Below the pieces are notes generated by a model. The model was not told the origin of the DNA, did no database searches, and saw nothing but the letters and a program-made list of their open reading frames with translations. The position numbers and the translations under genes are program-made. Positions 10,242-56,267 of a stretch of DNA of 64,000 bases are shown one piece after another (the first letter of the stretch is position 1; every line of letters starts with the position of its first letter). Where the stretch lies: positions 10,359 through 74,358 of the forward strand of contig JAJAPY010000016.1 in NCBI GenBank assembly GCA_020523885.1, read 5' to 3'. Origin of the DNA: Candidatus Liberimonas magnetica (lineage in GTDB: Bacteria > Elusimicrobiota > Endomicrobiia > Endomicrobiales > JAFGIL01).

Positions 10242-10248
10242 AACAACA

Positions 10249-10325: not shown

Positions 10326-10334
10326 ATAACAACT

Positions 10335-11162: not shown

Positions 11163-11163
11163 G

Positions 11164-11270
11164 AAAATAATGCAAATTGAAAATTGCAAAATGAAAAATT
11201 AAGGAATAAAAACTTATTTAATAAAAGTCGTTAACCTTAATCTTGCATTTTTTATTTTGCAATTTTCATT
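11164..11270. repeat. Stutter-arm inverted repeat, TGCAAAAT dialect (simple form)
   Basis: aaaataatgcaaattgaaaattgcaaaatgaaaaattaagg ... tttaataaaagtcgttaaccttaatcttgcattttttattttgcaattttcatt. Confidence 0.85.
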
Positions 11271-19463: not shown

Positions 19464-20978
19464 ATGAACAACAAGAGCATATATTTAATCCTGTTTTTCA
19501 TTGTTTTATTCCATCTTGCAGGGAATTATTATTGGCTTAAAAAAAATGATGTCCAATATGAATCTTGCCATCCGTTCGCATTTTATACTTCTCAAGTGAT
19601 TTTTACAGGGGATAGTATCAATGTAAAAAGCATTTTAAGGTACTGTTTTGATAGTTACAATTATCCGCCTTTTCAGTTGTTGTTTGGAGCCGCGGTTATG
19701 TCAGCCAGTGACAGGAACTTTCAGGCATTGATCCTTGTAACGAACACTTTCTGGATGATTTTGTCGATATTTTTAACTTATAAAATAGGCGAATTCGTTC
19801 ATTCTAAAGAAGCAGGCATAACAGCAGCTTTGTTATTATCCATGTATCCTGCTTTTTACCTGCTTTCCAGGCATTACACTTTCCATTTTGCTTTAATACC
19901 CGCGGTTGCTTTATCTATTTATTGCCTCTTAAAAACCGAAGGTTTTGAAAATACCAAATGGTCGGTAATATTAGGCATGTCTCTCTTGCTGGGGACACTT
20001 GTAAAACACCCTTTTATTGTTTTTTTGGCCGGGCCTTTAGTTTATATGATGTCCAGGGCGCTTATAAAAAGGGCCGGTATTACCGTAATAAGAAATATGA
20101 TTTATTCTGTAGCTATAGGGCTGTCTTTTGATTCGGTGTTTTATTTTAATCCAAATGCTGTTAAAAAAATCATTTCGAACAATTTGTTGTGCGATCCGGC
20201 CGGCCCGTGGTATAAACTGGAAAATTTAAAGGTTTATACTACCGGAGTACCGCAAAGCCAGCTGTCGCCGCTCTTGTTTTTATTGTTTCTTTTCGGTCTT
20301 TATATAGTGATAAAAAAATACAAAGTAGCTTACGTTAAGGTTATTTTCATTTTATGGATACTGGTCCCGTTACTGATATTGATCTTTATGCCGCATAATA
20401 AAGAGTCGAGTTATATCACTCCGTACTTGCCTGCGCTGGCGGTTATTTCAGCGATAGGGACAGCGGGCTTAAAAAGAGGTCCCAGGTACTTTATCCTGTG
20501 TTTTAGTTTTATTCTGTCATTATTGCTTTATTCTGAATTGAGTTCGATGATTAATCTTAACCTGCAGAAAATAAATATAAGTATCGCGCCTACCATGGAA
20601 ATGAGCTATTTTCGTAAAGACGTTTTCGCTGACAACAACGAGGCCTATAAGGCTATTTCCAGTTATATCGAAAGTAAAAATAATACTGAGGGCATAAAAA
20701 CAAAAACATTAGTACTCGTGCAAAACGCCCTTGAGGTCAATATGAATGTAATAAGAAATCTATCCTGGCACAGAAAACTGGACATAGATGTTTTTGAAGG
20801 TCTTCCGACTGATTTGTTTGCACCCGGTAAAAACTATGATACAATATTGTTTGCGGGGTCTCCAAACAGGGCAAATACTTATAAATACCTAAAACTTTGG
20901 GGGTTTTTGAATAAGTACAGATCAAAAAAAACAATATATATGAAAAACGCTCTTGAAGTTATCGCATATACCAAATGA
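19464..20978 (+). CDS. GT-C fold membrane glycosyltransferase (GT39/GT83, ArnT/PMT-like), putative
   Basis: 504 aa with about 10 predicted TM helices and a soluble C-terminal domain. The call rests on overall resemblance only. Confidence 0.5.
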   Translation: MNNKSIYLILFFIVLFHLAGNYYWLKKNDVQYESCHPFAFYTSQVIFTGDSINVKSILRYCFDSYNYPPFQLLFGAAVMSASDRNFQALILVTNTFWMILSIFLTYKIGEFVHSKEAGITAALLLSMYPAFYLLSRHYTFHFALIPAVALSIYCLLKTEGFENTKWSVILGMSLLLGTLVKHPFIVFLAGPLVYMMSRALIKRAGITVIRNMIYSVAIGLSFDSVFYFNPNAVKKIISNNLLCDPAGPWYKLENLKVYTTGVPQSQLSPLLFLLFLFGLYIVIKKYKVAYVKVIFILWILVPLLILIFMPHNKESSYITPYLPALAVISAIGTAGLKRGPRYFILCFSFILSLLLYSELSSMINLNLQKINISIAPTMEMSYFRKDVFADNNEAYKAISSYIESKNNTEGIKTKTLVLVQNALEVNMNVIRNLSWHRKLDIDVFEGLPTDLFAPGKNYDTILFAGSPNRANTYKYLKLWGFLNKYRSKKTIYMKNALEVIAYTK

Positions 20979-21011
20979 AGCAATATTTTCTTGCATAGAA
21001 AACAGGTTAAA

Positions 21012-23195: not shown

Positions 23196-23228
23196 GACAA
23201 CAGACAACAGATTACAGGCAACTAAACT

Positions 23229-24581
23229 ATGACGAATATAGCAAAACGTAACTTTGTAATTATGTCTTTATTTTGTATTTTTTTTATGCAAAGTAAGTCT
23301 TTCGCGGATCAGTCTGCTGGAGTATTACTTGAATTGCCGACTTCAGCAAGGGCAGGAGGAATGGCGGAATGTTATACTGCCCTGGCTGATGACCCGTTCG
23401 GAGTTTATTATAACCCTGCAGGGATTTCGTTTATTAAAAAGCCGTCGGTTTCTTTTTTATACCAGCAGTATTTGCAGGATATAAACGGCAGTTTTGTGGC
23501 ATTGACGCTGCCGGGAAAGAATTTCAGTATAAATGCCGCGCCGGGTTTTATCTCAATGAAAGAAGAACCTGTATATGATTATTTCGGGAATGATACCGGG
23601 AGAAAATTTAAGTTCCAGGGGACCGTCATACCGCTATCAGGAGCATACAGGCTCAAAGATATTTCTTTCGGTGCAACGGTTAAATACTATAAGGAACAGT
23701 TAGATGACATAGCGAAAGACGTTACGACTTTTGATGCGGGTGTGATTTATAAGTATACAGATATCAGCTTAGGCACATCTTTGCTCAACATGAGCGGCAA
23801 ATTCGGTGATTACGACCTTCCAAAGACAATAAGATTCGGTATTGCCTATACAGTCAGTAAAATAAACATTCTTTTTGACTATAGTTCGCAGGTCACGGTT
23901 AAAAAAAATACTTACCATATAGGCGGCGAGGTGCCGGTATCCGATCATATCTTCATTAGGCTTGGCTATAAATTAAAAGATGAGTTTAGCGGCTTAAGCT
24001 ATGGTTTGGGAATTAAAATGAGCAAGTTTGATATTGATTATGCGGCTTCAAGCTACAGCGAGCTTGGATTGACACAGAGGGCGAGCCTTAACTATCATTT
24101 TGAAATAAAAAAGAAGAAAGAAAAAGCAAAAGAAAAAGTAGTAAAAAAAGATAAATATAAAGAAAAAGAACCGACCACCCCGTATATTAAAGGAGTTATT
24201 ACTGCAGCTGTCGCTGATCTGGTAGCTAGAAACGCATCTGCAGCCGAAGCCGCTTCCGCAACAGATTCTATAAGGAGCGAACTTAACTCAATTATGGAGG
24301 TCAATGTAATTGAAAAGGAAAATATGGAAATGCTCCTGGCTGAACAGAAATTTCCGATGTCAGGATGCTCAAGCCAGGAATGTGCGGTTAAAATGGGAAA
24401 GATACTTAATGCAAAAATCGTTATAATAGGTTCTTTATCAAAGCTTTCAGATACTTATTTTATTAATGCTTTGATAATAGATGTTTCAACCGGAGATATA
24501 TTACAATCCGTAGTCCAAGAAGGGATAAGCGCAACTAAGTTAAGGAACGCCTGCAAGCAGATCCTTGGAAGGATCAAATAG
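23229..24581 (+). CDS. PorV/PorQ-like outer-membrane beta-barrel fused to a CsgG/LpoB-like periplasmic domain
   Basis: Signal peptide; ARAGGMAECYTALADDPFGVYYNPAGISF motif typical of the PorV/PorQ family. K/E-rich linker, then a C-terminal domain with GCSSQECAVKMGKILNAKIVIIGSL. Confidence 0.6.
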   Translation: MTNIAKRNFVIMSLFCIFFMQSKSFADQSAGVLLELPTSARAGGMAECYTALADDPFGVYYNPAGISFIKKPSVSFLYQQYLQDINGSFVALTLPGKNFSINAAPGFISMKEEPVYDYFGNDTGRKFKFQGTVIPLSGAYRLKDISFGATVKYYKEQLDDIAKDVTTFDAGVIYKYTDISLGTSLLNMSGKFGDYDLPKTIRFGIAYTVSKINILFDYSSQVTVKKNTYHIGGEVPVSDHIFIRLGYKLKDEFSGLSYGLGIKMSKFDIDYAASSYSELGLTQRASLNYHFEIKKKKEKAKEKVVKKDKYKEKEPTTPYIKGVITAAVADLVARNASAAEAASATDSIRSELNSIMEVNVIEKENMEMLLAEQKFPMSGCSSQECAVKMGKILNAKIVIIGSLSKLSDTYFINALIIDVSTGDILQSVVQEGISATKLRNACKQILGRIK

Positions 24582-24631: not shown

Positions 24632-24739
24632 AAACAAAAGAGTGGCATGTACGTTAAGCCGCTCTTTAGTTTTTCTGGCCCAGTTGGCCAGATAAAGATA
24701 AGATTAGACAGATTAAAACGGAATAAAACGGCTGGATCT

Positions 24740-25201
24740 ATGAGCACGATAGAAGAGCTTGAAAAAGTTATTGCACCAGTACTTGAGACAGATAAATTTG
24801 AGCTTGTCGATATTAATTACGGAAAAGAAGGCGGCAAGAAGGTGTTGCGTGTTTTCATCGATAAAGAAGGCGGCGTAAAACTGGCAGATTGCGAGGCCGT
24901 GAGCCTCAAGATAGAAGAAGCGGTTGAAACTTCAGAGCTTATACCTGATGATTATGTAATAGAAGTGTCTTCGCCCGGGCTTGACAGGATAATAAAGAAA
25001 GAGAAAGACTTTATAAAGTTTACGGGGCAGGATGTGAAAATATCGGTTTTTGCACCGATTGACGGGCAGCGGAATTTTACAGGCAAACTGCTCTGGGCAG
25101 GCGAAGGAAAAGTCAAGATAGCCGATATATCCGGTAAGACGCTTGAGATAGAGATAGAAAAGATTGCAAGAGCCAGGTTGAACCCTGAGATAAGAATATA
25201 A
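24740..25201 (+). CDS. rimP: Ribosome maturation factor RimP
   Basis: MSTIEELEKVIAPVLE..., EVSSPGLDR motif, position before nusA. ATG 24740 preferred over the track start at 24647. Confidence 0.85.
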   Translation: MSTIEELEKVIAPVLETDKFELVDINYGKEGGKKVLRVFIDKEGGVKLADCEAVSLKIEEAVETSELIPDDYVIEVSSPGLDRIIKKEKDFIKFTGQDVKISVFAPIDGQRNFTGKLLWAGEGKVKIADISGKTLEIEIEKIARARLNPEIRI

Positions 25202-25303
25202 TGAAAAAATTAAAATGAAAAATGCAAAATTAAGGAAAGAACCAATATAATAAAAGTCTTTTAACCTTAATTTTTCAATTTGATATTTGCATTTTGCATT
25301 TGA
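25202..25303. repeat. Stutter-arm inverted repeat, TGCAAAAT dialect (simple form)
   Basis: tgaaaaaattaaaatgaaaaatgcaaaattaagg ... ataataaaagtcttttaaccttaatttttcaatttgatatttgcattttgcatttga. The track's nusA start at 25294 falls inside the right arm. Confidence 0.85.
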
Positions 25304-25323
25304 TTTTTATAGGGAGAATTAGG

Positions 25324-26682
25324 ATGCCAGAAAAAAGTGAAATGATTTTAGCTTTAGAACAAATAGAAAAAGACAAAGGAATCCCAAAGGGCGATATAAT
25401 AAAAGTCATTGAAAATGCACTTGTTTCAGCTTATAAGAAGCATGTCGGCAAAGACGTTAACGTAGAGGCCGTGGTTAACCCCGAGTCAGGGGAGATGGGA
25501 GCTGTCGTCATAAAGAAAGTTGTCTTGGAATTGAAAAACCCTTCTTTGGAAATTACCCTGGATGAAGCAAAGGCAATAAAAAGCGATATTAAGCTGGACG
25601 AAGACCTCAGGATGCCTCTTGATACGCAGGATTTTTCAAGGATCGCCGCCCAGATAGCAAAACAGGTCATTGTTCAAAAGATAAGAGAATCCGAAAGGCA
25701 AAGCCTTTTTGACGATTATAAAGGGAAAGTCGGTTTAATGGTTAACGGTGTCGTATGGCGTTTTGCGAACCGCAACATAATAGTTGACCTTGGAAAAACC
25801 GAAGCTATTTTACCTGTATCCGAACAGATAAGCAAGGAAAAATTCAATCTCGGCCAACATGTAAGGGCTATAATAGTAAAGGTAGAGAAAGGTTCAAGAG
25901 GGCCCGTAGTAGTGCTGTCAAGGAGCCATCCGGACCTTGTTAAAAGGCTTTTTGAAGTTGAAGTGCCAGAGATCTATGAAAAGATAGTCGAAATAGTAAA
26001 TGTTGTGCGCGAAAAAGGGATGAGGGCTAAAGTAGCCGTTACATCCAATAATCCGAAAGTCGACCCTGTAGGCGCTTGTGTCGGTATTAAAGGAGCAAGG
26101 GTAAAACCTATCATAGACGAGCTTTTCGGAGAACGCATAGACCTTATACCCTTTTCGAACGACCCGGAAAGATATATCGCATCATCTCTTTCACCTGCAA
26201 AAGTTACGCGGGTTAACCTGATATCAAAAGAAGCAAAAAAGGCGGAGGTTATAGTAAACGATGAAATGCTCTCTCTTGCCATCGGAAAGAGCGGGCATAA
26301 TGTCCGACTTGCCGCAAAATTGGTAGGATGGCACATCGATATCCGCTCAGAATCCCAGAAAAAGAAGGAAACAGAACAGAATAATACCGTGGTAAGCGAG
26401 AATCTAAGCAAACTTAAAGGCGTAGGGCAAAAAACCGTTGAAGTCTTAACGAAAGCAGGTTTTATTGACATCAATAAACTTGCCAATGCAAAAATAGATG
26501 ACTTAACGACTTTACAAGGCATCGGAGAAAAAACCGCCAAGAAAATAATAGACTCAGCAAAGGAATTAATTAACACGAAACTTCAGGAGGCAAAAGAAAC
26601 AGAAACAAAAGCAACGGAAACAGACGAAGCCCCTGCAGCAAAGCCTAAAACAAAAGAAAAATCATCAAAAAAGGAAGAGTAA
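25324..26682 (+). CDS. nusA: Transcription termination/antitermination factor NusA
   Basis: NusA N-terminal domain, S1, two KH domains (GACVGIKGARV, AIGKSGHNVRLA), C-terminal HhH region. Confidence 0.95.
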   Translation: MPEKSEMILALEQIEKDKGIPKGDIIKVIENALVSAYKKHVGKDVNVEAVVNPESGEMGAVVIKKVVLELKNPSLEITLDEAKAIKSDIKLDEDLRMPLDTQDFSRIAAQIAKQVIVQKIRESERQSLFDDYKGKVGLMVNGVVWRFANRNIIVDLGKTEAILPVSEQISKEKFNLGQHVRAIIVKVEKGSRGPVVVLSRSHPDLVKRLFEVEVPEIYEKIVEIVNVVREKGMRAKVAVTSNNPKVDPVGACVGIKGARVKPIIDELFGERIDLIPFSNDPERYIASSLSPAKVTRVNLISKEAKKAEVIVNDEMLSLAIGKSGHNVRLAAKLVGWHIDIRSESQKKKETEQNNTVVSENLSKLKGVGQKTVEVLTKAGFIDINKLANAKIDDLTTLQGIGEKTAKKIIDSAKELINTKLQEAKETETKATETDEAPAAKPKTKEKSSKKEE

Positions 26683-26705: not shown

Positions 26706-28886
26706 ATGGCCCCAAAAGAGAAAGACAAACCAGTTTCAAAAAAGGCGACCCCCGTAAAAAAGGCTGAACCACGCAAGGTTAAAGAGAAGAAAGCAGCAGC
26801 CCCGGAATTAAAAGAAAAATCCCCTGCTCCAGCCGGGGCTAAGGAAAAAAAACCCAGAACCAAGAAAGTACCTGCGGAACCTAAAGCCGAAAAAAAGGCA
26901 AAAATACCCAAGAAAGAACCGGCAGAAAAAAAAATAAAACCTAAAGCCATAAAACCGGCCAAGGAAGAAAAAGTAAAAGCAGCCGAAAAAATCGTAGAAA
27001 AACATAAGGAAGCAAAAGAACCGGAAGTTAAAGAAAAAAAACATGAAGTTCATATAAAACCGCCTTCAGCAGAGCCCGTTATCGAACAGAAAGCCGAAGT
27101 TCCTCAAGCAGTCCCTAAAAAAGAAGAAAAAAAGCACGGAAGAGATATCAGGATAAACGAGCTTACCACAATACGCGAGATAGCAGAAAAGCTGGGGCAA
27201 ACTACCGGCGATGTGATCAAGAAATTATTGTCTATGGGCACGCTTGCAACGATAAACCAGAGAATAGACCTGGAAGTTGCGGAGCTCTTGGCCAGTGAAT
27301 ACGGATTTGATATAAAATTTGCATCGATATTTGAAGGCGAGAAAATAGCCGAAGAAGAAGATGATGTCGAAAATCTAAAACCGAGGCCTGCGGTCGTGAC
27401 TATTATGGGCCATGTAAATCATGGAAAAACTTCTCTTTTGGATGCCATCAGGGAAACCGATGTAGCCAGTAAGGAAGCAGGGGGAATAACACAGCATATA
27501 GGCGCCTATAAAGTTAAAACAGCAAAAGGCGAGGTGACTTTCCTTGACACGCCCGGCCATGAAGCATTTACCGCGATGCGTTCGCGCGGTGCCCAGGTTA
27601 CGGATATAGTTGTGCTTGTAGTTGCTGCAGATGACGGCGTAATGCCCCAGACAGTTGAGGCCCTGGACCATGCGCGTGCAGCGGCTGTCCCCATAATCGT
27701 AGCGATCAACAAAATAGATGTTCCAGGAGCAAACCCTTCCCAGGTAAAGCAGGAGCTTACAAAATATAACCTTCTTTCCGAAGATTGGGGTGGCGATACC
27801 ATAATGGTAGAGGTTTCTGCAAAAAACAATATCAAGATCGACGCACTGCTTGAAATGATACTTTTAAAAGCTGAAATGATGGAGCTAAAGGCAAATCCGG
27901 ATACTCTGGCCAGGGGAGCTGTAGTAGAAGCCAGGCTTGACCATAAAAGAGGCCCTGTTATAACCGTTTTGATCCAGAAAGGCACTCTTCATGTCGGTGA
28001 TAATTTTATAGTGGGTACTACGTACGGCAAAGTGCGCGCCATGACCGATGACCACGGCAAAAAGCTTGATGAAGCAAAACCTGTGACACCCGTTGAGATC
28101 CTGGGAGTAAATTCTCTTCCCCATGCAGGCGACAGGTTCATCGCGATGGATGACGAACGAAAAGCAAGAGAAATAGCCCAGACCAGGTTCAGCCGGGCAA
28201 GAGAAGAAAGGATGAAACCGAGGCATCATTTGTCATTGGAAGATATCAGCTCCGGAAAAGTCAAAGAACTAAGGCTTGTCCTAAAGGCTGATGTTCAGGG
28301 GTCTTTAGGAGCGCTGCGCGATTCCTTAGATAAGCTTTCAACACCGGAAATAAAACTTACGATAATTCACGGCGGGATCGGCACCATAAACGAATCGGAC
28401 GTGACCTTAGCCGCTGCAAGCGATGCTATAATAATGGGGTTCAGCATTAAACCTGACACCGCAGTCGAGCGCATGGCTGAACGCGAAGGGGTAAGCATCA
28501 GGATTTACCGCATTATATACGAGGTCATTGCCGATGTAAGGGCGGCAATGGAAGGCATGCTTGAACCGCAATTAAAGGAAATAAGCCTTGGAAAAGCCCA
28601 GGTAAGGCAGGTTTTTAAAATATCCAAGGTGGGCACTATTGCGGGATGCAGTGTCCTGGAAGGGAAAATACAGAGGGGTTGTAAAGTGAGGATCCTTCGT
28701 GACAACGTAATAATTTATGACGGAAATATAATTACCTTAAGAAGGTTCAAAGATGACGTCAAAGAAGTTGACAAAGGTTTTGAATGCGGTATAGGCCTTG
28801 AGAGATATTCTGACTTTAAGAATGGAGATATTTTGGATTTATATACTTTTGAAAAAATAGCAAGAAAACTTGAAGACAATAAATAA
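26706..28886 (+). CDS. infB: Translation initiation factor IF-2
   Basis: K/E/P-rich N-terminus. G domain with GHVNHGKTS, DTPGHEAF and NKID motifs. Confidence 0.95.
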   Translation: MAPKEKDKPVSKKATPVKKAEPRKVKEKKAAAPELKEKSPAPAGAKEKKPRTKKVPAEPKAEKKAKIPKKEPAEKKIKPKAIKPAKEEKVKAAEKIVEKHKEAKEPEVKEKKHEVHIKPPSAEPVIEQKAEVPQAVPKKEEKKHGRDIRINELTTIREIAEKLGQTTGDVIKKLLSMGTLATINQRIDLEVAELLASEYGFDIKFASIFEGEKIAEEEDDVENLKPRPAVVTIMGHVNHGKTSLLDAIRETDVASKEAGGITQHIGAYKVKTAKGEVTFLDTPGHEAFTAMRSRGAQVTDIVVLVVAADDGVMPQTVEALDHARAAAVPIIVAINKIDVPGANPSQVKQELTKYNLLSEDWGGDTIMVEVSAKNNIKIDALLEMILLKAEMMELKANPDTLARGAVVEARLDHKRGPVITVLIQKGTLHVGDNFIVGTTYGKVRAMTDDHGKKLDEAKPVTPVEILGVNSLPHAGDRFIAMDDERKAREIAQTRFSRAREERMKPRHHLSLEDISSGKVKELRLVLKADVQGSLGALRDSLDKLSTPEIKLTIIHGGIGTINESDVTLAAASDAIIMGFSIKPDTAVERMAEREGVSIRIYRIIYEVIADVRAAMEGMLEPQLKEISLGKAQVRQVFKISKVGTIAGCSVLEGKIQRGCKVRILRDNVIIYDGNIITLRRFKDDVKEVDKGFECGIGLERYSDFKNGDILDLYTFEKIARKLEDNK

Positions 28887-28971: not shown

Positions 28972-29343
28972 ATGGAAAGTTATAAACGGGCTGTCAGGGT
29001 GGGGGAGCTGATACAGCATGAAATATCGAAGATCGTACAGGAACTGAAAGAGCCAGGGTTGGGGTTTATTACGATTACGGGAGTTAAGCTTACCGATGAC
29101 CTGAAATCTGCCAGGGTTTTTTACTCGATAATAGGCGATGAAAAAGACAAAAAAATAAATGACGAGATATTAAAGAACGTGACCCCTTTTATAAGGCATA
29201 TGCTAGCTGTCCGTGTAAATTTAAGATATACCCCTACTATAGAATTTAACTATGACGATACACCGGAACGTGCAACCAGGATTTTTGAGATATTGGAAAA
29301 GATAAAGAAAGAGGAATCATTAGAAAATCCAAATGATTCCTGA
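28972..29343 (+). CDS. rbfA: Ribosome-binding factor A
   Basis: RbfA-like KH fold sequence (RVGELIQHEISKIV...), position after infB. Confidence 0.9.
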   Translation: MESYKRAVRVGELIQHEISKIVQELKEPGLGFITITGVKLTDDLKSARVFYSIIGDEKDKKINDEILKNVTPFIRHMLAVRVNLRYTPTIEFNYDDTPERATRIFEILEKIKKEESLENPNDS

Positions 29344-29431: not shown

Positions 29432-30403
29432 ATGATACCGAGAGATAAAGAGTTTTCGTTAATAGCAAAGACTATCAAAAAAAATAAAACATTTTTTATA
29501 GCCGGGCATCTTAACCCGGACGGGGATACTATAGGCACGGCTTTGGCTTTGTCGTCGCTATTGACCAGGCTTGGCAAAAAACCCAGGGTGTATTCCAAAG
29601 ATGTTGTCCCTGAATATCTCTCATTTTTGCAGGGTGCCGGTAAAATAATAGTTGCGGATAAAGTAAAAGGAAGGTTTGACTGTGCTATTATTTTAGAATG
29701 CCTTGATATGAACAGGATGGGAGACTTAATATCGCCGGGACAGGCTAAAGAAGTAATTAATATTGACCACCATGCGAATTTTAACCATTTTGGGCATGTA
29801 AATTATATAGATTCAAGCGCTTCTTCCAGCTCCGAGATAATATTCCATCTGTTCAGGCATCTTAAAATGAAGCTGACTCCGCAAGAGGCGAACGCTCTTT
29901 ACGTGGGGGTAGTGACAGATACGGGAAAATTCCAGTATAACAATACAACTTCCTCGGCTGTTTATATGGCGTCTTGTTTGATCGATGCTGGAGTTAAGCC
30001 TTACTATATCTATAATAAACTTTATTCTACGAAAACATTCTCTTCGCTTAAGCTTTTTGGGCTTGCCCTGTCAGGATTAAAAAAAACCGATTCCGGAAAA
30101 ATAGCGTACATTGAAATAACAAAAGAAATGTATAAGAAATCAGGTTCAAACGTTACTGAGAGCGAAGGGATAGTGAATGAAACTCTGAAGATACCAGGTG
30201 TCGTGATAGGAGCCCTTTTCAGGGAAGAAAAAGAAAGAAACATAACAAAAATAAGTTTACGCTCCCATGAAAAATATAATGTAAATAAGGTCGTCCAGGT
30301 TTTTGGCGGGGGCGGCCATAAGAATGCCTCAGGATGCACTTACAAAGGCACGATGGAAACTGCAAAAAAAGTCATCTTAAGCCATTTGGAAAAGCTAGTA
30401 TGA
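29432..30403 (+). CDS. nrnA: DHH/DHHA1 phosphoesterase (NrnA-like nanoRNase/pAp phosphatase)
   Basis: GHLNPDGD, NIDHH and GGGGH motifs. Confidence 0.75.
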   Translation: MIPRDKEFSLIAKTIKKNKTFFIAGHLNPDGDTIGTALALSSLLTRLGKKPRVYSKDVVPEYLSFLQGAGKIIVADKVKGRFDCAIILECLDMNRMGDLISPGQAKEVINIDHHANFNHFGHVNYIDSSASSSSEIIFHLFRHLKMKLTPQEANALYVGVVTDTGKFQYNNTTSSAVYMASCLIDAGVKPYYIYNKLYSTKTFSSLKLFGLALSGLKKTDSGKIAYIEITKEMYKKSGSNVTESEGIVNETLKIPGVVIGALFREEKERNITKISLRSHEKYNVNKVVQVFGGGGHKNASGCTYKGTMETAKKVILSHLEKLV

Positions 30404-31134
30404 CGTTCAACCTGGCAGAATCAGGCCTGCTGGTCATTAATAAACCGTCAGGCATAACATCCTATGGTGTTGTACGGAAGGTCAAGCACCTGTTGCAAAT
30501 TGACAAAGTCGGACATTGCGGAACGCTGGACCCTATGGCAGAAGGGGTCCTTTTAGTGCTGTTCGGTTCCTCAACGAAAATGCAGAGCGTGTTGATGGGC
30601 CAGAGGAAAGTTTACAGGACTGTTTTGTCCCTGGGTGTAAGAACTGACACCGGCGATATAACAGGAAAGATAATAGAAAAAAAAGAAACCAGGGATATCC
30701 AAAAGGAAGATCTTTTAAATGCGCTAAAAAAGTTTAGCGGGGAGATAAGACAGCTTACTCCGCATTTTTCCGCTGTAAAGGTGAACGGGAAAAAAATGTA
30801 CGAGCTTGCCCGCGAAGGGATAACGGTGGAAAGGCCGCCAAGGATAGTAAATATACATGAAATAGAGCTTCGCGGCTTTAATAGAGATGAGGTCAGTTTA
30901 AGGGTGGAGTGCTCAAGCGGGACATATATCAGGACTTTATGCGAAGATATAGGCGAAGAGCTGGGAATGCCAGCGACCATGAAATATTTGTGCAGGGAAA
31001 AGATAGGAAATTACGATATAAGCGCAGCAATAGCATTAAGTGAAATGGATAAATTAGGCAGGGACGGTTTGCTAGATAGAAAAATAAATTTAAGTTCAGA
31101 AATTCAAAATGCAAATTGCAAAATGCAAAATTAA
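30400..31134 (+). CDS. truB: tRNA pseudouridine(55) synthase
   Basis: GLLVINKPSGITS, HCGTLDPMAEGVL catalytic motif. ATGA overlap with nrnA. The last 11 codons read into the TGCAAAAT element. Confidence 0.9.
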   Translation: MTFNLAESGLLVINKPSGITSYGVVRKVKHLLQIDKVGHCGTLDPMAEGVLLVLFGSSTKMQSVLMGQRKVYRTVLSLGVRTDTGDITGKIIEKKETRDIQKEDLLNALKKFSGEIRQLTPHFSAVKVNGKKMYELAREGITVERPPRIVNIHEIELRGFNRDEVSLRVECSSGTYIRTLCEDIGEELGMPATMKYLCREKIGNYDISAAIALSEMDKLGRDGLLDRKINLSSEIQNANCKMQN

Positions 31135-31220
31135 TGTGTCGCCTTTGGCGACTTATTTAAATTATCCCGCCAAGGCGGGATTCCGCAATTTTGCACTTTG
31201 CAATTTTCATTTTGCAATTA
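31101..31220. repeat. TGCAAAAT-dialect element, complex form with two internal GC hairpins
   Basis: Left arm aattcaaaatgcaaattgcaaaatgcaaaatt. Hairpins GTCGCC-ttt-GGCGAC (31138-31152) and ATCCCGCC-aa-GGCGGGAT (31164-31181). Right arm caattttgcactttgcaattttcattttgcaatt. Confidence 0.85.
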
Positions 31221-31244: not shown

Positions 31245-32138
31245 TTGAGGCCTTCTTGTGTCAGCATAGGTACGTTTGACGGTGTTCATCTCGGGCACCA
31301 GCATTTAATAAAAAATCTTTTAAAGACAGCGCGAAAAAAAAACCTTAAGAGCATTCTTGTTACAATAGCTTCGCCTGTCCGGCCTGTACCCGGAGTTTTG
31401 ACCGTTCAAAAAGAAAAGCTGGAGCTGTTAAAGAGCTTTTCTTTAGACGAAATAATCATACTCCCGAATACAAGTGAAATATTAGAACAGTCAGCCCTTT
31501 CTTTTTTCGAGAATTTTATTTGCCGGAAACTTAAGACAAAATACATAATAGCAGGCGAAAACTTTGCTTTTGGCCGTAACAGGGAAGGGGATATCCAGTG
31601 GTTGAAAGAAAAATCAAAGGCAGAAGGCATCAGGATCGAAATAGTCAAACCCTATCTGGATAACGGTTTAGTTTCGTCAACAAGGATAAGAAGGCTTATG
31701 CTCTGTGGAAAACTGAGTGAAGCGAATAAGCTTCTAGGCAGAGAATATCAGTTCGAAGGAATGCCTGTAAAAGGAAGAGGGTTGGGTAGGAAATTAGGTT
31801 TTCCTACGATAAATTTGAAAGTTGACCCGGAAAAACTCCTCCCTACAGGAGTTTATGCAGCCTGGGCCGTGATAGGGGCCGGAGATGAAAAGGAGAATGC
31901 GGCAGCCTGGCCTTCTGTAGTAAACATAGGGACGCGGCCGACGTTCTTTAACAAAGGCAATATTCATTCGGAAGTGCATTTACTGGATGTCAAATGTCTA
32001 TGTCCGGACAAAAGAACGATAGTAGCTTTGCACAAGTTCATAAGGCCGGAAAAAAAATTTGAGAATATAGAACGGTTGACAAAACAGGTCAATTTGGACA
32101 TAAGCGAAGCAAAAAACTTCTTTAAGGTGATAAGCTAA
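31245..32138 (+). CDS. ribF: Bifunctional riboflavin kinase / FMN adenylyltransferase
   Basis: IGTFDGVHLGHQHLI motif, C-terminal riboflavin kinase domain. TTG start. Confidence 0.9.
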   Translation: MRPSCVSIGTFDGVHLGHQHLIKNLLKTARKKNLKSILVTIASPVRPVPGVLTVQKEKLELLKSFSLDEIIILPNTSEILEQSALSFFENFICRKLKTKYIIAGENFAFGRNREGDIQWLKEKSKAEGIRIEIVKPYLDNGLVSSTRIRRLMLCGKLSEANKLLGREYQFEGMPVKGRGLGRKLGFPTINLKVDPEKLLPTGVYAAWAVIGAGDEKENAAAWPSVVNIGTRPTFFNKGNIHSEVHLLDVKCLCPDKRTIVALHKFIRPEKKFENIERLTKQVNLDISEAKNFFKVIS

Positions 32139-32175
32139 AATGATCCACAACATCAATGGAACGGAGGTATTTTAA

Positions 32176-34149
32176 ATGAAGGCTTATGATAGTGAATCCA
32201 TACGGAATGTTTGCCTGGTCGGATCTCAAGGCGACGGAAAGACTTCTGTCGCGGAAGCGATGCTTTTTAACGCAAAAGTAACTACCCGTTTGGGGACTAT
32301 AGCTGAAGGAAATACTGTATGTGATTCAAGCGACGAAGAGATCGAAAGAAAGATATCAATAAGCATGAGCCTTTCTTTTTTGGAACATAAAGATAAAAAG
32401 ATCAACCTTCTTATTACGCCCGGCTACGGGGATTTTATCGGAGAGGTTTTAGCAGGTCTTGCGGTAGCAGAGACCGCTGTTTTTACTGTTTCCGCAGATT
32501 CAGGGGTTACGCCGGTAGGGGAAAATCTTTGGGAGATACTTGAAGAAAAGTCCATACCTACCGCGATTTTTTTAAACAAACTGGATAGGGACAATATTAA
32601 TTTCGAACAACTGATAAAAGAACTTAAAGAAAAGTTGAACCAGCAGGTGGCAGTAATAAATATGCCGAATGCAACCGGCCCGGATTTCAAAAATGTAACG
32701 AACATCCTGGAAGGGAATTCAAAGGACTCCTGGTATGAGAACCTGCTTGAAATAGTCTCTTCGGCGGACGATACATTAACTGAAAAATATCTTGACGGCA
32801 AGGAAATAACCCTTGAGGAAGTCAAGGCAGCGCTTAAAAAAGCCATGATAGAGCGTAAAGTATTCCCTTTGCTGTGCGGCAGTGCCGTAAAAAATATAGG
32901 CATTAAAGAACTGTCGGATTTTATAGCGGATTACTTTTCGCCGCCTAAACCGTCGGCTGACAATGCTCATTTTTCAGGGCTTGTTTTTAAGACTATTAAC
33001 GAACCCGGCATGGGGCAGGTAAACTTTGCAAAGATATATTCGGGTGCCCTGGTACACGGGAAGGATATATATAATTTTACCAAAAGCACTACCGAACGCA
33101 TAGGCCAGCTCAGTTTTGTCCAGGGTAAAAAGAAAGTTGATGCAGCTAACGTTTGCGTAGGCGACCTGGTAGCTCTTTTAAAGCTTAAAGATACAAGGAC
33201 TAACGATATACTCTGCGATGAAAAGTCTCAGCCGAACATAAAGCAAATATCTTTTCCAGAACCGATATACAAAAAAGCCATTATAACGGCTTCCAAAGGG
33301 GATGCGGAAAAAGTCGGCAATGCACTTGCGACTGCTATAACTGAAAACCCGACCATTACTTATAAATTTGACGCTGAAACGAAAGAGATGACTCTGTCGG
33401 GCATGGGGTCTTTACAGCTTGAGGTGATGATAAAAAAGATAAAAGGCCGCTATGGTGTTGATGTAAGCCTTCAAAAGCCCCGTGTGCCTTTCAAAGAAAC
33501 GCTGCATGGAAAATCCGAAGTGCAGGGTAAGTATAAACGGCAGTCAGGCGGCCGCGGCCAGTACGGAGACTGCTGGCTGAGGGTTGAGCCTTTGCCAAGA
33601 AGCAAAGGTTTTGAATTTGTAAATAAAATAGTCGGCGGAGTCATACCCCGCAACTATATACCCGCAATAGAAAAAGGCGTTAAGGAAGCGATGGAGCAGG
33701 GAGTCATAGCAGGATACCCTGTAGTGGATATCTCCGTTACGGTCTTTGACGGTTCATATCATGAAGTAGATTCGTCAGATATGGCTTTCAAGATAGCAGG
33801 GGCTATGGCATTTAGAAAGGGGTTTGTAGAAGCTAAACCGGGCATACTTGAGCCGATATGCGACCTGGAAGTTATAATTCCGGACGGTTACATGGGGGCG
33901 ATCATGGGCGACCTGAATTCCCGCAGAGGCAGGGTCATGGGAATGGATAAAGCCGGCAAAAAACAGCTTATCAAAGCCCAGGTACCGATGGGTGAGATAT
34001 TTGAATATGCCACGGACCTTCGTTCCTTGACAAAAGGGAGCGGTAAATATTCAATGAGGTTCTCCCATTACGAGGACTCACCGCCTCAGATAGCGCAGCC
34101 TTTAATAGACCTGTTCGCTAAGACAAAAGAAAGTGAAAGTGAAAAATAA
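32176..34149 (+). CDS. Elongation factor G paralog with a degenerate G3 motif
   Basis: Five-domain EF-G architecture. G1 GSQGDGKT and G4 NKLD are present, but the canonical IIDTPGHVDF is replaced by LLITPGYGDF. Confidence 0.85.
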   Translation: MKAYDSESIRNVCLVGSQGDGKTSVAEAMLFNAKVTTRLGTIAEGNTVCDSSDEEIERKISISMSLSFLEHKDKKINLLITPGYGDFIGEVLAGLAVAETAVFTVSADSGVTPVGENLWEILEEKSIPTAIFLNKLDRDNINFEQLIKELKEKLNQQVAVINMPNATGPDFKNVTNILEGNSKDSWYENLLEIVSSADDTLTEKYLDGKEITLEEVKAALKKAMIERKVFPLLCGSAVKNIGIKELSDFIADYFSPPKPSADNAHFSGLVFKTINEPGMGQVNFAKIYSGALVHGKDIYNFTKSTTERIGQLSFVQGKKKVDAANVCVGDLVALLKLKDTRTNDILCDEKSQPNIKQISFPEPIYKKAIITASKGDAEKVGNALATAITENPTITYKFDAETKEMTLSGMGSLQLEVMIKKIKGRYGVDVSLQKPRVPFKETLHGKSEVQGKYKRQSGGRGQYGDCWLRVEPLPRSKGFEFVNKIVGGVIPRNYIPAIEKGVKEAMEQGVIAGYPVVDISVTVFDGSYHEVDSSDMAFKIAGAMAFRKGFVEAKPGILEPICDLEVIIPDGYMGAIMGDLNSRRGRVMGMDKAGKKQLIKAQVPMGEIFEYATDLRSLTKGSGKYSMRFSHYEDSPPQIAQPLIDLFAKTKESESEK

Positions 34150-34204
34150 GTAATTATTTTATATAATAATAAAAAAAAACAGTAGAAACTAGAGGAGGTT
34201 TCAA

Positions 34205-34465
34205 ATGGAACCGGTCAAAAAAACGATTATTGAAGATTTTAAAGTGCATGCTACGGACACAGGTTCATCGGAAGTACAGGTGGCCCTATTGACAAGCAGG
34301 ATAAATTACTTGTCAGATCATTTTAAGAACCATCCGAAAGATTTCGCATCCCGTTCCGGTTTCTTAAAGATGATTAACCAGAGGCGCAAGTTATTAGACT
34401 ATTTAAAGAAGCACAGCCATGAAAAATACAAAACAATAATCGAAAAACTCGATTTAAGAAAATAA
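34205..34465 (+). CDS. rpsO: 30S ribosomal protein S15
   Basis: TGSSEVQVALLTSRINYLSDHFKNHPKD..., GAGGAGG SD. Confidence 0.95.
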   Translation: MEPVKKTIIEDFKVHATDTGSSEVQVALLTSRINYLSDHFKNHPKDFASRSGFLKMINQRRKLLDYLKKHSHEKYKTIIEKLDLRK

Positions 34466-34507: not shown

Positions 34508-34595
34508 AATCATATACAAGTAATAAAATCCGGATAAGCTTTTTAAGAAATCTGTGAATTCAAAGTTAGCGAAGCTAGCTTTAAAAGGAGTTATA

Positions 34596-36665
34596 GTGAA
34601 CAGAATATCAAAGTCAATAGATGTCGGAGGCAAAACTCTTACTATACAGACAGGCCATTTGGCAAAGCAGGCGAATGGTTCATGCCTGGTAAGTATGGGA
34701 GATACGGTTGTCCTGGTTGCGGTAGTTGCAGCAAAAGAACCGAAGGAAGGCGGAGATTTTCTGCCTTTGACGGTAGATTACCGCGAGCGTACCTATGCCG
34801 CTGGAAAGATACCGGGAGGTTTCTTTAAAAGAGAAGGAAGGCCCAGAGAAAAAGAAATATTGTCATCAAGGATCGTTGACAGGAGCATAAGGCCGTTGTT
34901 TGATGAAAAATGGAAAAACGAAACCCAGGTATCTATTCTTGTGCTTTCTTTTGACGGCGAGAATGACCCAGATGTGTTAAGCGTGATAGGCGCTTCCAGC
35001 GCCCTGAGATTATCGAATGTACCGTTTACCAGCCTCCTTTCCTGTGTCAGGATCGGCAGGATAGATGGAAAGTTGATAGTCAACCCCACTCTTTCAGAGC
35101 GGAAACTGAGCGACCTGGACCTTCTGGTGAGCGGAAAAAGCGATGCTTTGTGTATGGTGGAAGCAGGCGCAAATGAAATGTCCGAACAAGAAATGCTTGC
35201 GGCACTCAATTTTGCCCAGGATGAAATAAAGAAAATATGTGCCTTCCAGGAAACTCTCCCGGCGAAAGATAAAATGGCCCTCATTGAGCCCGAAAAAATA
35301 CAAGAACTGGAAAGTGAAATTAAAAACACAGTCACAGAACAGGTAAAGAACATCCTTACGGTCAGCGATAAAACCAGCCGCGATGAGCAATGGAGCAGCC
35401 TTAAGAAAGCTGTTGTTGAAAAACATATAGCGCAGTACCCCGAAAAAGAAGGGTATATTGACAGCGTTCTGGAAAATATATTCTATTGCCAGGCAAGAGA
35501 GCTTATTTTAGGAAAAAAAGTAAGGTCGGACGGAAGGCAATTTGACGAAATCCGGCCGATCGAATGTAATATCGGGGTTTTGCCGCGAGCCCATGGTTCT
35601 GCCGTATTTACAAGAGGCCAGACCCAAAGTTTAGCCACGGTCACGCTCGGCAGCCCTCAAGATATGCAGATAAAGGATGAACTGGAAGGCGAATATAAAG
35701 AAAGGTTTATGCTTCACTATAATTTTCCCGGTTTTGCGACGGGAGAGTCAAAGCCTGAGCGTGGGACAAGCCGCAGGGAAACAGGCCACGGCGCCCTTGC
35801 AAGGAAATCCCTGCTGCCGTTACTGCCGAAAGAAGACGATTTTCCTTATACTATAAGGGTAGTTTCGGATATCCTGGAATCGAACGGTTCTTCGTCTATG
35901 GCTTCGGTTTGCGGAGGTTCTCTTGCTCTTTTTGATGCAGGAGTACCTATAAAGTCATCCTGTGCAGGGGTTGCCATGGGGCTTGTGAAAGAGGGCGAAA
36001 CATACGCGATACTTACGGATATAATGGGAATGGAAGACCATCTTGGAGACATGGATTTCAAAGTTGCTGGCACAAAGAACGGGATCACTGCCCTTCAAAT
36101 GGATATAAAGATATCCGGGTTGTCAGCCCAGCTCATGAGCGAAGCCCTGGAAAAAGCAAGGGCTGCAAGGCTTAAGATACTTGAGAAGATGGAAACAACT
36201 ATAGCAAGCCCAAAATCCGACATATCCAGTTTTGCGCCGAGGATGCTCACTATTATGATACCCCAGTCAAAGATAGGGGAGTTAATAGGTCCTGGCGGCA
36301 AAAATATAAGAAAGATCCAGGAAGATACAAAAGTTGAGATAAATATAGAAGAAGACGGAAGGGTGTTTATTTCCAGCCCCGACAAAGCTGCTGTTGAGGC
36401 GGCAAGGACCATTGTTGAAGCCCTTACCCAGGAAGCAGAGGTCGGGAAAGTCTATAAGGGAAGAGTGACAAGGCTGATGAACTTCGGCGCTTTTGTCGAA
36501 ATCCTTCCAGGCAAAGAAGGGCTGGTCCATATATCCCAGCTGGCTGAAAAAAGAGTAGCAAAAGTCGAAGATGTCGTAAAAGAGGGTGACGAGATAACCG
36601 TCAAGGTAATTGAAATCGACAACCAGGGCAGGATAAACCTGAGCAAGAAAGCAGTCGATAAGTAA
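34596..36665 (+). CDS. pnp: Polyribonucleotide nucleotidyltransferase (PNPase)
   Basis: Two RNase PH domains, KH and S1 domains. GTG 34596 has an AAGGAG SD 7 nt upstream and is preferred over the track start at 34554. Confidence 0.95.
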   Translation: MNRISKSIDVGGKTLTIQTGHLAKQANGSCLVSMGDTVVLVAVVAAKEPKEGGDFLPLTVDYRERTYAAGKIPGGFFKREGRPREKEILSSRIVDRSIRPLFDEKWKNETQVSILVLSFDGENDPDVLSVIGASSALRLSNVPFTSLLSCVRIGRIDGKLIVNPTLSERKLSDLDLLVSGKSDALCMVEAGANEMSEQEMLAALNFAQDEIKKICAFQETLPAKDKMALIEPEKIQELESEIKNTVTEQVKNILTVSDKTSRDEQWSSLKKAVVEKHIAQYPEKEGYIDSVLENIFYCQARELILGKKVRSDGRQFDEIRPIECNIGVLPRAHGSAVFTRGQTQSLATVTLGSPQDMQIKDELEGEYKERFMLHYNFPGFATGESKPERGTSRRETGHGALARKSLLPLLPKEDDFPYTIRVVSDILESNGSSSMASVCGGSLALFDAGVPIKSSCAGVAMGLVKEGETYAILTDIMGMEDHLGDMDFKVAGTKNGITALQMDIKISGLSAQLMSEALEKARAARLKILEKMETTIASPKSDISSFAPRMLTIMIPQSKIGELIGPGGKNIRKIQEDTKVEINIEEDGRVFISSPDKAAVEAARTIVEALTQEAEVGKVYKGRVTRLMNFGAFVEILPGKEGLVHISQLAEKRVAKVEDVVKEGDEITVKVIEIDNQGRINLSKKAVDK

Positions 36666-45794: not shown

Positions 45795-46022
45795 ATGAAA
45801 ACAGTTGGAAAAAGATCGGAAAACCAGATAGATTTTCATGCTTCCGCAGAAAAACTTAAAACCGGGGCGCTGTTTAATGATGAGATGCAAAAACTTGCGC
45901 TTACATACGGTGGTTTTTTTAAGAAAGGTGTTTACAGGTACAAAACGCATGAAGATGCAAATAAACATTGGGAAGACAGCCTGGTAAAAAATGTTGCAAG
46001 GAAAAACATTAATGGAAAATGA
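45795..46022 (+). CDS. Small hypothetical protein, possible antitoxin-like partner of the downstream nucleotidyltransferase
   Basis: 75 aa. Overlaps the next ORF by 11 nt. The opposite-strand 102-aa ORF is F/C/K-rich and looks spurious. Confidence 0.4.
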   Translation: MKTVGKRSENQIDFHASAEKLKTGALFNDEMQKLALTYGGFFKKGVYRYKTHEDANKHWEDSLVKNVARKNINGK

Positions 46023-56249: not shown

Positions 56250-56267
56250 ACTAAGCGGAACTAAAGT

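Follow-up and report, generated by a model that had tools for sequence, protein, structure and literature searches.

An EFG II-type elongation factor G paralog lacking the catalytic His and the G3 Asp in a small clade of Endomicrobia

EF-G2 paralogs have recently provided the main natural evidence that ribosomal translocation needs no GTP hydrolysis. In translational GTPases, the Walker-B Asp of the G3 motif positions the Mg2+–water network. The EFG II signature combines a G2 motif of the form xxxSx, with Ser, and a conserved G3 motif, DxPG (Margus, Remm & Tenson 2011, PLoS One 6:e22789). Among 305 surveyed genomes, those with one EFG always had EFG I, and EFG II always occurred together with another EFG, either EFG I or an spdEFG pair (Margus et al. 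2011). [quoted passage not shown] A Bacteroides EF-G paralog is described as carrying out translocation that does not require GTP to be hydrolysed (Han et al. 2023, EMBO J 42:e112372). T. thermophilus EF-G-2, a His-less EFG II member, is reported to have ribosome-dependent GTPase and translocation activity, so that a missing His alone is no proof of a dead GTPase. The EF-G2 of B. thetaiotaomicron is starvation-induced under the regulator Cur, and a 26-residue element is reportedly responsible for the behaviour of the Bacteroides protein.

We analysed an EF-G paralog encoded in a 64-kb stretch of DNA (the window) from Candidatus Liberimonas magnetica DUR002 (Elusimicrobiota, Endomicrobia), an obligate fermenter with a 3.4-Mb genome. 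Features of the gene and its surroundings are listed in Table 1. An earlier note on this DNA had described a protein with the full five-domain EF-G layout, with G1, G4 and G5 retained and with a G3 motif in which neither the Asp nor the catalytic His is present. Each of these points was confirmed. Pfam searches recovered GTP_EFTU (residues 8–255), EF-G_D2 (266–348), EFG_III (360–433), EFG_IV (435–554) and EFG_C (557–641), and AlphaFold2 returned a confident model (pLDDT 89.6, pTM 0.83) whose predicted fold matched ribosome-bound EF-G with TM values of 0.87–0.93. The G1 (GSQGDGKT), G4 (NKLD) and G5 (GSA) motifs were found intact, and ITPGY, at the G3 position, lies within the codon series ctt ctt ATT acg ccc ggc TAC ggg gat ttt.

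Table 1. Coordinates of the EF-G2-type gene, its motifs and its neighbours (positions within the window)
Feature	Position	Strand	Remarks
rimP	24647-25201	+	upstream array
nusA	25294-26682	+	upstream array
infB	26706-28886	+	upstream array
rbfA	28972-29343	+	upstream array
DHH/nrnA-like	29432-30403	+	upstream array
truB	30334-31134	+	upstream array
ribF (riboflavin kinase/FAD synthetase)	31245..32138	+	TIGR00083, 216 bits; directly upstream, 37-nt gap
Shine-Dalgarno GGAGG	32163..32167	+	8 nt 5' of ATG; direct sequence reading
EFG II/EF-G2-type EF-G paralog	32176..34149	+	657 aa, MCB4792396.1; ATG-started ORF, five EF-G Pfam domains
G1/P-loop GSQGDGKT, residues 16-23	32221..32244	+	Asp20 is the clade-specific acidic residue, P-loop position 5
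G2/switch I ERKISI, residues 57-62	32344..32361	+	Ser61 instead of the Thr of canonical RGITI
G3/switch II ITPGY, residues 80-84	32413..32427	+	att acg ccc ggc tac; Ile80 for Walker-B Asp, Tyr84 for catalytic His
G4 NKLD, residues 134-137	32575..32586	+	guanine-specificity motif, kept; D137 invariant, N134 nearly so (alignment A1)
G5 GSA, residues 235-237	32878..32886	+	kept; G235 and S236 nearly invariant (alignment A1)
Domain IV tip loop I QSGGRGQYG, residues 456-464	33541..33567	+	invariant Q456, G458, G459, G461, Q462, Y463, G464 (alignment A1)
Domain IV tip loop II HEVDSS, residues 529-534	33760..33777	+	invariant H529, V531, D532, S533, S534 (alignment A1)
Promoter-like site before rpsO	34139-34167		match not above shuffled background
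rpsO (ribosomal protein S15)	34205..34465	+	TIGR00952; directly downstream, 55-nt gap
pnp (polynucleotide phosphorylase)	34554..36665	+	NF008805, 982 bits

The two departures from the canonical G3 motif differ in their distribution among homologs. None of the 118 closest aligned homologs has His at the catalytic position, which is occupied by Tyr or Phe instead, and His is almost absent at G3 among 150 representatives at 50% identity. The statement that DTPGH is universally conserved was not borne out: the change from His to Tyr or Phe is the normal, published state of EFG II/EF-G2, and for this reason the missing His is not novel as a headline feature. The G3 Asp, on the other hand, is lost in all 17 members of a clade that was monophyletic in 199 of 200 bootstraps, with seven kinds of residue in its place, all of them uncharged and either hydrophobic, small or polar (Ile, Val, Leu, Ala, Ser, Thr, Asn). 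No further Asp-less G3 was detected among the 150 representatives, nor among 94 additional G-domain matches, and orthologs with DTPGH, in which ITPGY would have looked like a sequencing error or a strain-specific mutation, were not encountered among the 118 homologs (His) or the 17 clade members (Asp). An acidic residue at P-loop position 5 was present in 16 of the 17 Asp-less sequences as compared with none of 100 Asp-containing homologs, and Ser61 of the G2 motif was invariant in alignment A1. Judged from its sequence, the protein lacks the GTPase-centre elements that hydrolysis activated by the ribosome requires, with His changed to Tyr, AHIDA to GSQGD and RGITI to RKISI. The new part is the loss of the G3 Asp in a small Endomicrobia clade; otherwise the protein represents mostly known biology.

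Family profiles and phylogeny were used to place the protein. Residues 1–651 matched positions 1–689 of the 692 in NCBIfam model NF009381 (PRK12740.1-5) with 789 bits, above the cut-off of 583. Scores fell below the cut-offs for canonical EF-G (TIGR00484, 588.9 versus 659.4 bits), for NF009377 ('elongation factor G-like protein EF-G2', 542.7 versus 890 bits) and for NF058620 (EFG2_Bacteroid, 501 bits in three fragments versus 1000). Canonical EF-G was rejected as an identity on its TIGR00484 score, on the absence of AHIDAGKT, RGITI and DTPGH, and on a position that is not next to rpsG or tuf. In NJ trees, the only kind built, with 31 tuf-linked canonical EF-Gs and no spdEFG as labelled references, these 31 and only His-type sequences were separated from the query and all non-His sequences in 200 of 200 bootstraps; the same split between EFG I and non-His sequences was recovered from domains II–V alone. 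With respect to the published EFG II signature, the G2 motif shows the relaxation of RGITI to xxxSx (ERKISI, Ser61 in place of the Mg2+-coordinating Thr); the clade as a whole has conserved G1 GxxxxGKT, G4 NKxD and G5 (g)SAx motifs; and the gene, with ribF and rpsO on either side, is not part of the str operon (rpsL-rpsG-fusA-tuf), no S12, S7 or EF-Tu being encoded in the window. The exception is G3 DxPG, which reads ITPG in the query and keeps its Asp in all other homologs surveyed. Because the family is defined by phylogeny, the loss of Asp makes the protein a variant and does not exclude it from EFG II. On its tree position and motifs, the 657-aa protein is classified as a member of the EFG II/EF-G2 subfamily with a derived loss of the G3 Asp. 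A scan of contigs with the clade alignment, based on generic domain-IV peptides, returned, among the matches listed, relatives of at most 44% identity from other phyla and none from Elusimicrobiota; these loci then served as labelled canonical and EFG II references. No entry for K02355, fusA or 'elongation factor G' was found in the supplements of the DUR002 paper and the Endomicrobia genomics paper.

Comparison with described EF-Gs revealed a mixture of shared and divergent features. Like other EFG II members, the protein has five domains, a gene outside the str operon, retained G1, G4 and G5 motifs, a G2 motif of the 'RxxSI' type (ERKISI) and a G domain far more divergent than domains IV–V. 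It differs in that the Asp described as conserved in DxPG is replaced by one or other of the seven residues given above in the query and 16 close orthologs, in the acidic P-loop position 5 of its clade, and in the fixed location of the gene between ribF and rpsO. The best solved match to the G domain was M. smegmatis EF-G2 (PDB 9K0Z, 9K10; 149 bits; model TM 0.89), with which it shares the context TPGY.DF.GE, the change of His to Tyr and the loss of AHIDA and RGITI. In the M. smegmatis protein, however, the G3 Asp is still present (DTPGY), G4 and G5 are degenerate (TKLD, no GSA) and the length is 709 aa; identity in the Foldseek structural alignment was about 35%. The second-best solved G-domain match, B. 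thetaiotaomicron EF-G2 (PDB 7UVP, 8DMF; TM 0.86), is also His-less (DCPGS), but retains the G3 Asp, contains Bacteroidetes-specific insertions and, at 718 aa, is 61 aa longer than the query. Given the difference in length and the NF058620 score of about half its cut-off, the 26-residue Bacteroides element is probably absent from the query.

T. thermophilus EF-G-2 (PDB 1WDT, 2DY1), a structurally characterised EFG II member, gave a model TM of 0.84 and 401 bits. The query was nearer to canonical T. thermophilus EF-G (508 bits) because its domains II–V are very EF-G-like, matching T. thermophilus EF-G with 424 bits. The overall fold is the same, and the tip loops of domain IV are nearly unchanged, QSGGRGQYG in the query corresponding to QTGGRGQYG in T. 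thermophilus EF-G and YHEVDSS being identical. Canonical EF-Gs are longer, at about 691–704 aa, and the G' region is shorter in the query.

Conservation was assessed across the protein and relative to neighbouring genes. Domain IV was the most conserved domain, with a mean identity of 0.81 as compared with 0.62 for the G domain and 0.64 for the whole protein, and GKT and NKxD were invariant across the alignment, like the domain-IV tips. The invariant tips point to engagement of the A site and decoding centre as in translocation. Identities to orthologs were 72, 68 and 56% for the EF-G2-type gene, as compared with 75, 70 and 67% for nusA, 69, 65 and 64% for infB, and 71, 66 and 67% for pnp. Such values indicate purifying selection on the gene as strong as on nusA, infB and pnp.

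Profile matches to the neighbours supported the earlier assignment of the gene to a position between ribF and rpsO, within the nusA-infB...rpsO-pnp cluster. The short gaps suggest that the gene probably shares an operon with ribF and possibly with rpsO as well. No terminator-like site was found between ribF and the EF-G2-type gene in a promoter/terminator scan whose matches did not exceed shuffled background, and Rfam and tRNA scans yielded nothing, with no recognisable rpsO or pnp leader. The order rimP-nusA-infB-rbfA-nrnA-truB-ribF-EFG-rpsO-pnp was present in all five Asp-less contigs, the window included, and in the nearest Asp-containing sister, P0072; adjacency of ribF and the EFG gene was conserved in L081, L082, L084, L085, L089 and L090. 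Only the ribF adjacency is kept in P0061, and three more distant Elusimicrobiota orthologs adjoin yebC-ruvCAB, smc or scpAB. The position between ribF and rpsO is common only to the Asp-less clade and its nearest sisters, and its linkage is recent and narrow, since distant orthologs lie elsewhere and P0061 keeps only one of the two neighbours. The housekeeping array also carries accB and ftsK.

Taken with the motifs and the phylogeny, these features suggest that the protein is probably a ribosome-binding but hydrolysis-incompetent EFG II paralog that works alongside a canonical fusA elsewhere in the genome, whether by slow translocation without hydrolysis or by occupying ribosomes as a stress-specific regulator. 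Its predicted docking place is the EF-G site of the ribosome, where domain IV would reach into the A site; a guanine nucleotide would probably be bound, and the SRL would not stimulate GTP hydrolysis. As a slow translocase it might save GTP in an energy-limited obligate fermenter, like B. thetaiotaomicron EF-G2; as a regulator it might occupy ribosomes under specific stress, like M. smegmatis EF-G2. Fast translocation and recycling would be left to canonical fusA. Loss of the Asp could represent further degeneration of a GTPase centre, tolerable once hydrolysis had become dispensable; the acidic residue that arose at P-loop position 5 may compensate for it in part. The earlier proposal, that the protein may bind the ribosome yet not hydrolyse GTP in the normal way, is in line with what experiments have shown for characterised EF-G2 proteins. 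B. thetaiotaomicron EF-G2 is induced by starvation, whereas the query gene sits in a housekeeping array, and such tight placement in a constitutive array is not obviously a good fit to a starvation-induced factor.

Several other explanations were considered. High variability at position 80, with seven residue types in 17 clade sequences, might be taken as a sign of a sequencing or assembly error, or of a pseudogene-like paralog in decay whose G domain is under relaxed constraint. We rejected this reading, which we regard as having almost no chance of being correct: the frame is intact, the reads behind this DNA (SRR16235686), assembled independently in Logan, encode an identical 657-aa protein, conversion of the ATT at codon 80 to an Asp codon (GAY) takes two substitutions, the Asp is missing in all 17 orthologs, which come from different samples, and the G domain is as conserved as the whole protein (0.62 versus 0.64) and as neighbouring core genes. 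A tetracycline-type ribosomal protection protein of the TetM, TetO or TetQ family is just as improbable and was likewise rejected. Similarity to NF012153 (tet_protect) is weak, at 358.7 bits far under the cut-off of 775; TetM and TetO scored far below EF-G; the domain-IV tip is EF-G-like; and the PDB chain labelled 'TetQ' in 7uvp/8dmf, which might seem to favour such an origin, is in fact B. thetaiotaomicron EF-G2. It is also conceivable, although very improbable, that the protein is the only or primary EF-G of these genomes and translocates without the catalytic His and Walker-B Asp. In its favour, the gene's rate of evolution is as low as that of core translation genes, and no other EF-G homolog was found within the 64-kb window. 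The window, however, covers less than 2% of the 3.4-Mb genome, the str operon lies outside it, and in the 305-genome survey EFG II was never the sole EFG.

A more serious competitor, possible but clearly less probable than the reading preferred above, is a pure ribosome-occupying regulator with no translocase activity. Like M. smegmatis EF-G2, such a protein would attach under stress to 50S subunits or non-rotated 70S ribosomes, either damping translation or shielding the ribosomes, with nucleotide being at most a structural cofactor. MsmEF-G2, the closest solved G domain, has no ribosome-dependent GTPase or recycling activity and is described as stress-specific, and once nucleotide cycling has ceased, loss of the Asp at the Mg2+ site would be in keeping. 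Strong conservation of G4, G5 and the P-loop Lys and Thr argues instead for a functional nucleotide pocket, and invariant tips in domain IV would suit a translocase just as well; the two readings overlap and differ in the output step alone, and sequence cannot separate a regulator from hydrolysis-free translocation. The earlier note had drawn from the neighbourhood a role in assembly or rescue. In such a role the factor would employ the EF-G scaffold for checking or remodelling immature or stalled subunits, in functional coupling to rimP, rbfA, truB and rpsO. This is unlikely. Although the conserved gene order in the five Asp-less contigs and P0072, the short gaps and the lack of a terminator after ribF are in its favour, support from the neighbourhood is weak: the distant orthologs occur in unrelated contexts and P0061 retains ribF alone, the array consists of general housekeeping genes, ribF, accB and ftsK among them, and no assembly role is found among characterised EFG II members in the EFG II literature. 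Moreover, the strongest constraint falls on the decoding-centre loops of domain IV, as would be predicted if the protein engages the A site of mature ribosomes.

The picture of EF-G biology is unchanged by the Asp-less clade, the loss of His being already known for EFG II/EF-G2. The clade nevertheless offers a natural experiment in how much of its GTPase centre a translational GTPase can lose and still be of use: without His and the Mg2+-site Asp, its members keep the P-loop Lys and Thr, NKxD and SA, and evolve as slowly as IF-2 or NusA. A bolder and rather doubtful proposal is that the metal-site carboxylate was relocated and not lost, the Walker-B Asp having been given up and an Asp or Glu having become fixed at P-loop position 5 (GxQG[D/E]GKT). 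A pocket rewired in this manner might have an altered Mg2+ dependence or a constitutively 'GTP-like' state, and might allow a ribF/rpsO-linked EF-G2, expressed constitutively, to translocate or hold ribosomes without GTP turnover in an energy-limited obligate fermenter. I80D, Y84H and D20A are defined mutants with which to probe the contribution of nucleotide binding without hydrolysis. As to the order of events, coincidence of the Asp loss with the move into the ribF–rpsO slot was ruled out by P0072, which contains the Asp and has full synteny; relocation therefore preceded the loss of Asp.

The open reading frame of the EF-G paralog was confirmed at exactly the position given in the earlier note, as were its five-domain layout, with every domain matched by a Pfam model, and its G1, G3, G4 and G5 motifs (see table). 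The encoded protein matches MCB4792396.1 ('elongation factor G [Candidatus Liberimonas magnetica]') at every residue, and also occurs in a Logan assembly of SRR16235686, the DUR002 MAG read set. The G3 region is encoded by ctt ctt ATT acg ccc ggc TAC ggg gat ttt, in which conversion of ATT to any Asp codon requires two substitutions. An AlphaFold2 model made from an input alignment of 28 sequences was confident (pLDDT 89.6, pTM 0.83) and superposed on ribosome-bound EF-G structures with TM 0.87-0.93.

Features of the EF-G2 gene and its product
Feature	Window position	Strand	Query residues	Remark
EF-G2 gene ORF	32176..34149	+		657 aa, ATG start
Shine-Dalgarno GGAGG	8 nt 5' of EF-G2 ATG	+		DNA sequence
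GTP_EFTU			8-255	Pfam
EF-G_D2			266-348	Pfam
EFG_III			360-433	Pfam
EFG_IV			435-554	Pfam
EFG_C			557-641	Pfam
G1 GSQGDGKT	32221-32244	+	16-23	
Asp20	32233-32235	+	20	P-loop position 5
G2 ERKISI				versus ERGITI
G3 ITPGY			80-84	
G4 NKLD			134-137	
G5 GSA			235-237	

By sequence comparison the query is an EFG II/EF-G2-type paralog, an assignment based on NCBIfam scores, G-domain matches, published subfamily features and tree topology. NF009381, an 'elongation factor G' subfamily, was the only NCBIfam model that the query matched above cut-off (789 versus 583 bits); scores fell below it for canonical EF-G (TIGR00484, 589 versus 659), the EF-G2 equivalog (NF009377, 543 versus 890) and the Bacteroides EF-G2 model (501 versus 1000). 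A Tet protection protein was rejected on the same grounds (359 versus 775). The top PDB-sequence match of the whole query was canonical T. thermophilus EF-G, with domains II-V scoring ~425 bits and the G domain only ~78 bits. For the G domain, the best solved relative was M. smegmatis EF-G2 (9k0z; switch II DTPGYADFVGE), with B. thetaiotaomicron EF-G2 (7uvp/8dmf; DCPGSDDFVG) also near the top. In the definition of Margus et al. (2011), the G domain of EFG II is divergent and its RGITI has relaxed to xxxSx, with Ser; G1, G3 (DxPG), G4 and G5 are kept, and the gene is found outside the str operon. The query agrees with this description in all but G3. Neighbour-joining trees (200 bootstraps) were run on all columns and on domains II-V only, with 31 canonical EF-Gs from among the loci listed, identified by the tuf gene downstream of them, as reference. 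Both column sets gave a 200/200 split, with these 31 and none but His-type sequences on one side and the query plus every non-His sequence on the other.

The missing catalytic His is ordinary and already known for EFG II/EF-G2. None of the 118 sequences aligned at G3 among the best 120 homologs has His at this position; all have Tyr or Phe. Nearly all of 150 representatives of 50%-identity clusters have DxPG and then a residue other than His (Tyr, Phe or another). His occurs in just three (two DTPGH, one DCPGH), and the two with DTPGH also have AHIDAGKT and ERGITI and are therefore canonical. In M. smegmatis EF-G2, Y98 replaces the catalytic H88 and is directed away from the gamma-phosphate; in this protein, described as stress-specific, ribosome-dependent GTPase is minimal and recycling activity is absent. 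H88Y nearly abolished the GTPase of EF-G1. Han et al. (2023) are cited for a Bacteroides EF-G paralog that drives translocation without hydrolysing GTP. As a caveat to any argument from His loss, the EF-G-2 of T. thermophilus reportedly still has both GTPase and translocation activity.

Unlike the His loss, clade-wide loss of the G3 Asp is not ordinary; it is the new part of the finding, along with the P-loop acid that accompanies it, the strong selection and the constant position between ribF and rpsO. The Asp is absent from all 17 closest homologs (P0001-P0016 and P0020; 55-72% identical), which come from different samples and assemblies and form a clade (bootstrap 199/200). DTPGH, which by the earlier note would have refuted the observation, was found in none of them. 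The residues replacing Asp (I, N, A, S, V, T or L) are so varied that the aligned sequences show loss of constraint at this position. The Asp is kept in 100 of the best 120 homologs (three more being partial, without the G1/G3 region), in all other 50%-identity representatives (150 surveyed) and, among the matches listed, in 94 further G-domain matches from distant loci. The nearest sisters of the clade (P0061, P0063, P0072 and P0096) have D-T-P-G-Y/F.

The P-loop pattern G[SAP]QG[D/E]GKT was found, among the homologs, only in the Asp-less clade. An acid occupies position 5 in 16/17 Asp-less versus 0/100 Asp-containing homologs, and is maintained across the clade; the nearest sisters, with GPQG[ASGT]GKT, have the position-3 Gln without the acid. 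Because acid and Asp loss trace to a single branch, their association has no statistical weight as covariation. Judged from these alignments, Asp20 may be a relocated carboxylate for the lost G3 Asp.

Could the altered G3 reflect an error or a decaying copy? Rates were calibrated with syntenic neighbours in three other genomes of the clade. The EF-G2 gene (72/68/56% identity) was on a par with nusA (75/70/67%), infB (69/65/64%), pnp (71/66/67%) and ftsK (69/63/63%), and was clearly more conserved than ribF (51/50/45%) and truB (53/48/56%). The gene is thus functional and under strong purifying selection, and both an error and decay are rejected. Within the clade, mean pairwise identity is 0.62 in the G domain versus 0.64 overall, and P-loop G..G.GKT, switch-I EGNTV.D..EEIERKIS, PGY.DF and FLNK.D are kept. 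Domain IV is the most conserved domain (0.81), and its tip loops QSGGRGQYG and HEVDSS are invariant.

The query thus retains the EF-G fold and conserved nucleotide-pocket elements and has lost the Mg2+-site Asp. Hydrolysis-activating residues are also absent, with Tyr at the His84 position and the P-loop His/Ile/Asp and switch-I Arg-Gly-Ile-Thr altered. Such a protein would bind to the ribosomal EF-G site, probably with nucleotide bound, and without hydrolysis activated by the SRL. There it could either drive slow hydrolysis-free translocation, as in B. thetaiotaomicron, or occupy ribosomes as a regulator, as in M. smegmatis; the Walker-B Asp could go once hydrolysis was dispensable. Most of the work would be left to a canonical fusA; that the genome has none, with the EF-G2 gene its only EF-G, we consider very improbable. 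An Asp-less EF-G2 is no surprise at the family level, and the clade is a good natural test case for the role of nucleotide binding in a hydrolysis-free EF-G. The DUR002 MAG (JAJAPY000000000; Elusimicrobiota, class Endomicrobia, GTDB family JAFGIL01; 3.4 Mb, 94.4% complete, 39.8% GC) is predicted to represent a magnetotactic obligate fermenter, a lifestyle that GTP-sparing translation would plausibly, if speculatively, fit.

The neighbours named in the earlier note were borne out by the gene order rimP, nusA, infB, rbfA, DHH/nrnA-like, truB, ribF, EF-G2 gene, rpsO, pnp, accB, ftsK. The order from rimP to pnp recurred in 5/5 Asp-less contigs examined (the window, L081, L082, L084 and L085). In L084 (ENA ERZ27297473, k141_3254795), a 399-aa radical-SAM/SPASM gene (10031-11230), absent from the window and other relatives, lies between the EF-G2 gene and rpsO. 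P0072, the nearest Asp-containing sister, has the same rimP...pnp order, P0061 keeps only the ribF adjacency, and more distant Elusimicrobiota orthologs adjoin yebC-ruvCAB, smc or scpAB. The move beside ribF is therefore older than the Asp loss, and in the contigs compared the placement is confined to a narrow lineage. The assembly or rescue role read from this neighbourhood finds weak evidence there, because the array is a generic housekeeping block and the strongest constraint falls on decoding-centre loops; the earlier observation stands in full, and its interpretation only in part.

Gaps of 37 and 55 nt separate the EF-G2 gene from ribF and rpsO, respectively. In scans that as a whole were not above background, no terminator-like site was found between ribF and the EF-G2 gene, and a promoter-like site was found 5' of rpsO. 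Upstream of ribF and the EF-G2 gene, the one plausible transcript boundary is a terminator-like perfect 6-bp GC-rich hairpin (GTCGCC-TTT-GGCGAC, 31138-31152, both strands) 4 nt after truB, again from scans not above background. As called mechanically, the truB ORF overlaps the DHH/nrnA-like 3' end by 70 nt (30334-30403), and the TruB model aligns from residue 30 onwards only. Translation probably begins with the ATG at 30400, overlapping the upstream stop codon as ATGA, an arrangement that would suggest translational coupling.

Elsewhere the window holds ordinary housekeeping genes, all on the plus strand, including rnfCDGEAB, rpsB-tsf-pyrH-frr-uppS-cdsA-dxr-rseP-ispG, greA and proS. Family-assigned ORFs of at least 150 aa are all on the + strand (1-64000), the few long minus-strand ORFs lying inside plus-strand genes, and GC skew is positive in all 2-kb bins but one (-0.006). 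No Rfam families or tRNAs were detected in the 64-kb window. Six ORFs (167-719 aa; 45991-46494, 49520-50845, 51126-52757, 52783-53349, 60485-62644 and 19464-20978) had no library match, three having been scanned against Pfam and the other three against NCBIfam. The complete rnfCDGEAB operon (764-6040) fits the Rnf-based energy conservation that the paper describing DUR002 predicts. PorV/PorQ-family outer-membrane proteins, one fused to an OmpA-like domain, and large NHL/beta-propeller proteins, one with a T9SS type-A sorting (Por_Secre_tail) domain, are encoded within 20991-24581, 46506-49463 and 53365-55119; these are type-IX-secretion-like components found outside Bacteroidota. A MoxR-type AAA+ ATPase, a DUF58/VWA protein, a double-transmembrane-anchor protein and a DUF4159 protein follow in a row at 55245-60341, and look like a Bat/aerotolerance-like MoxR-VWA cluster.
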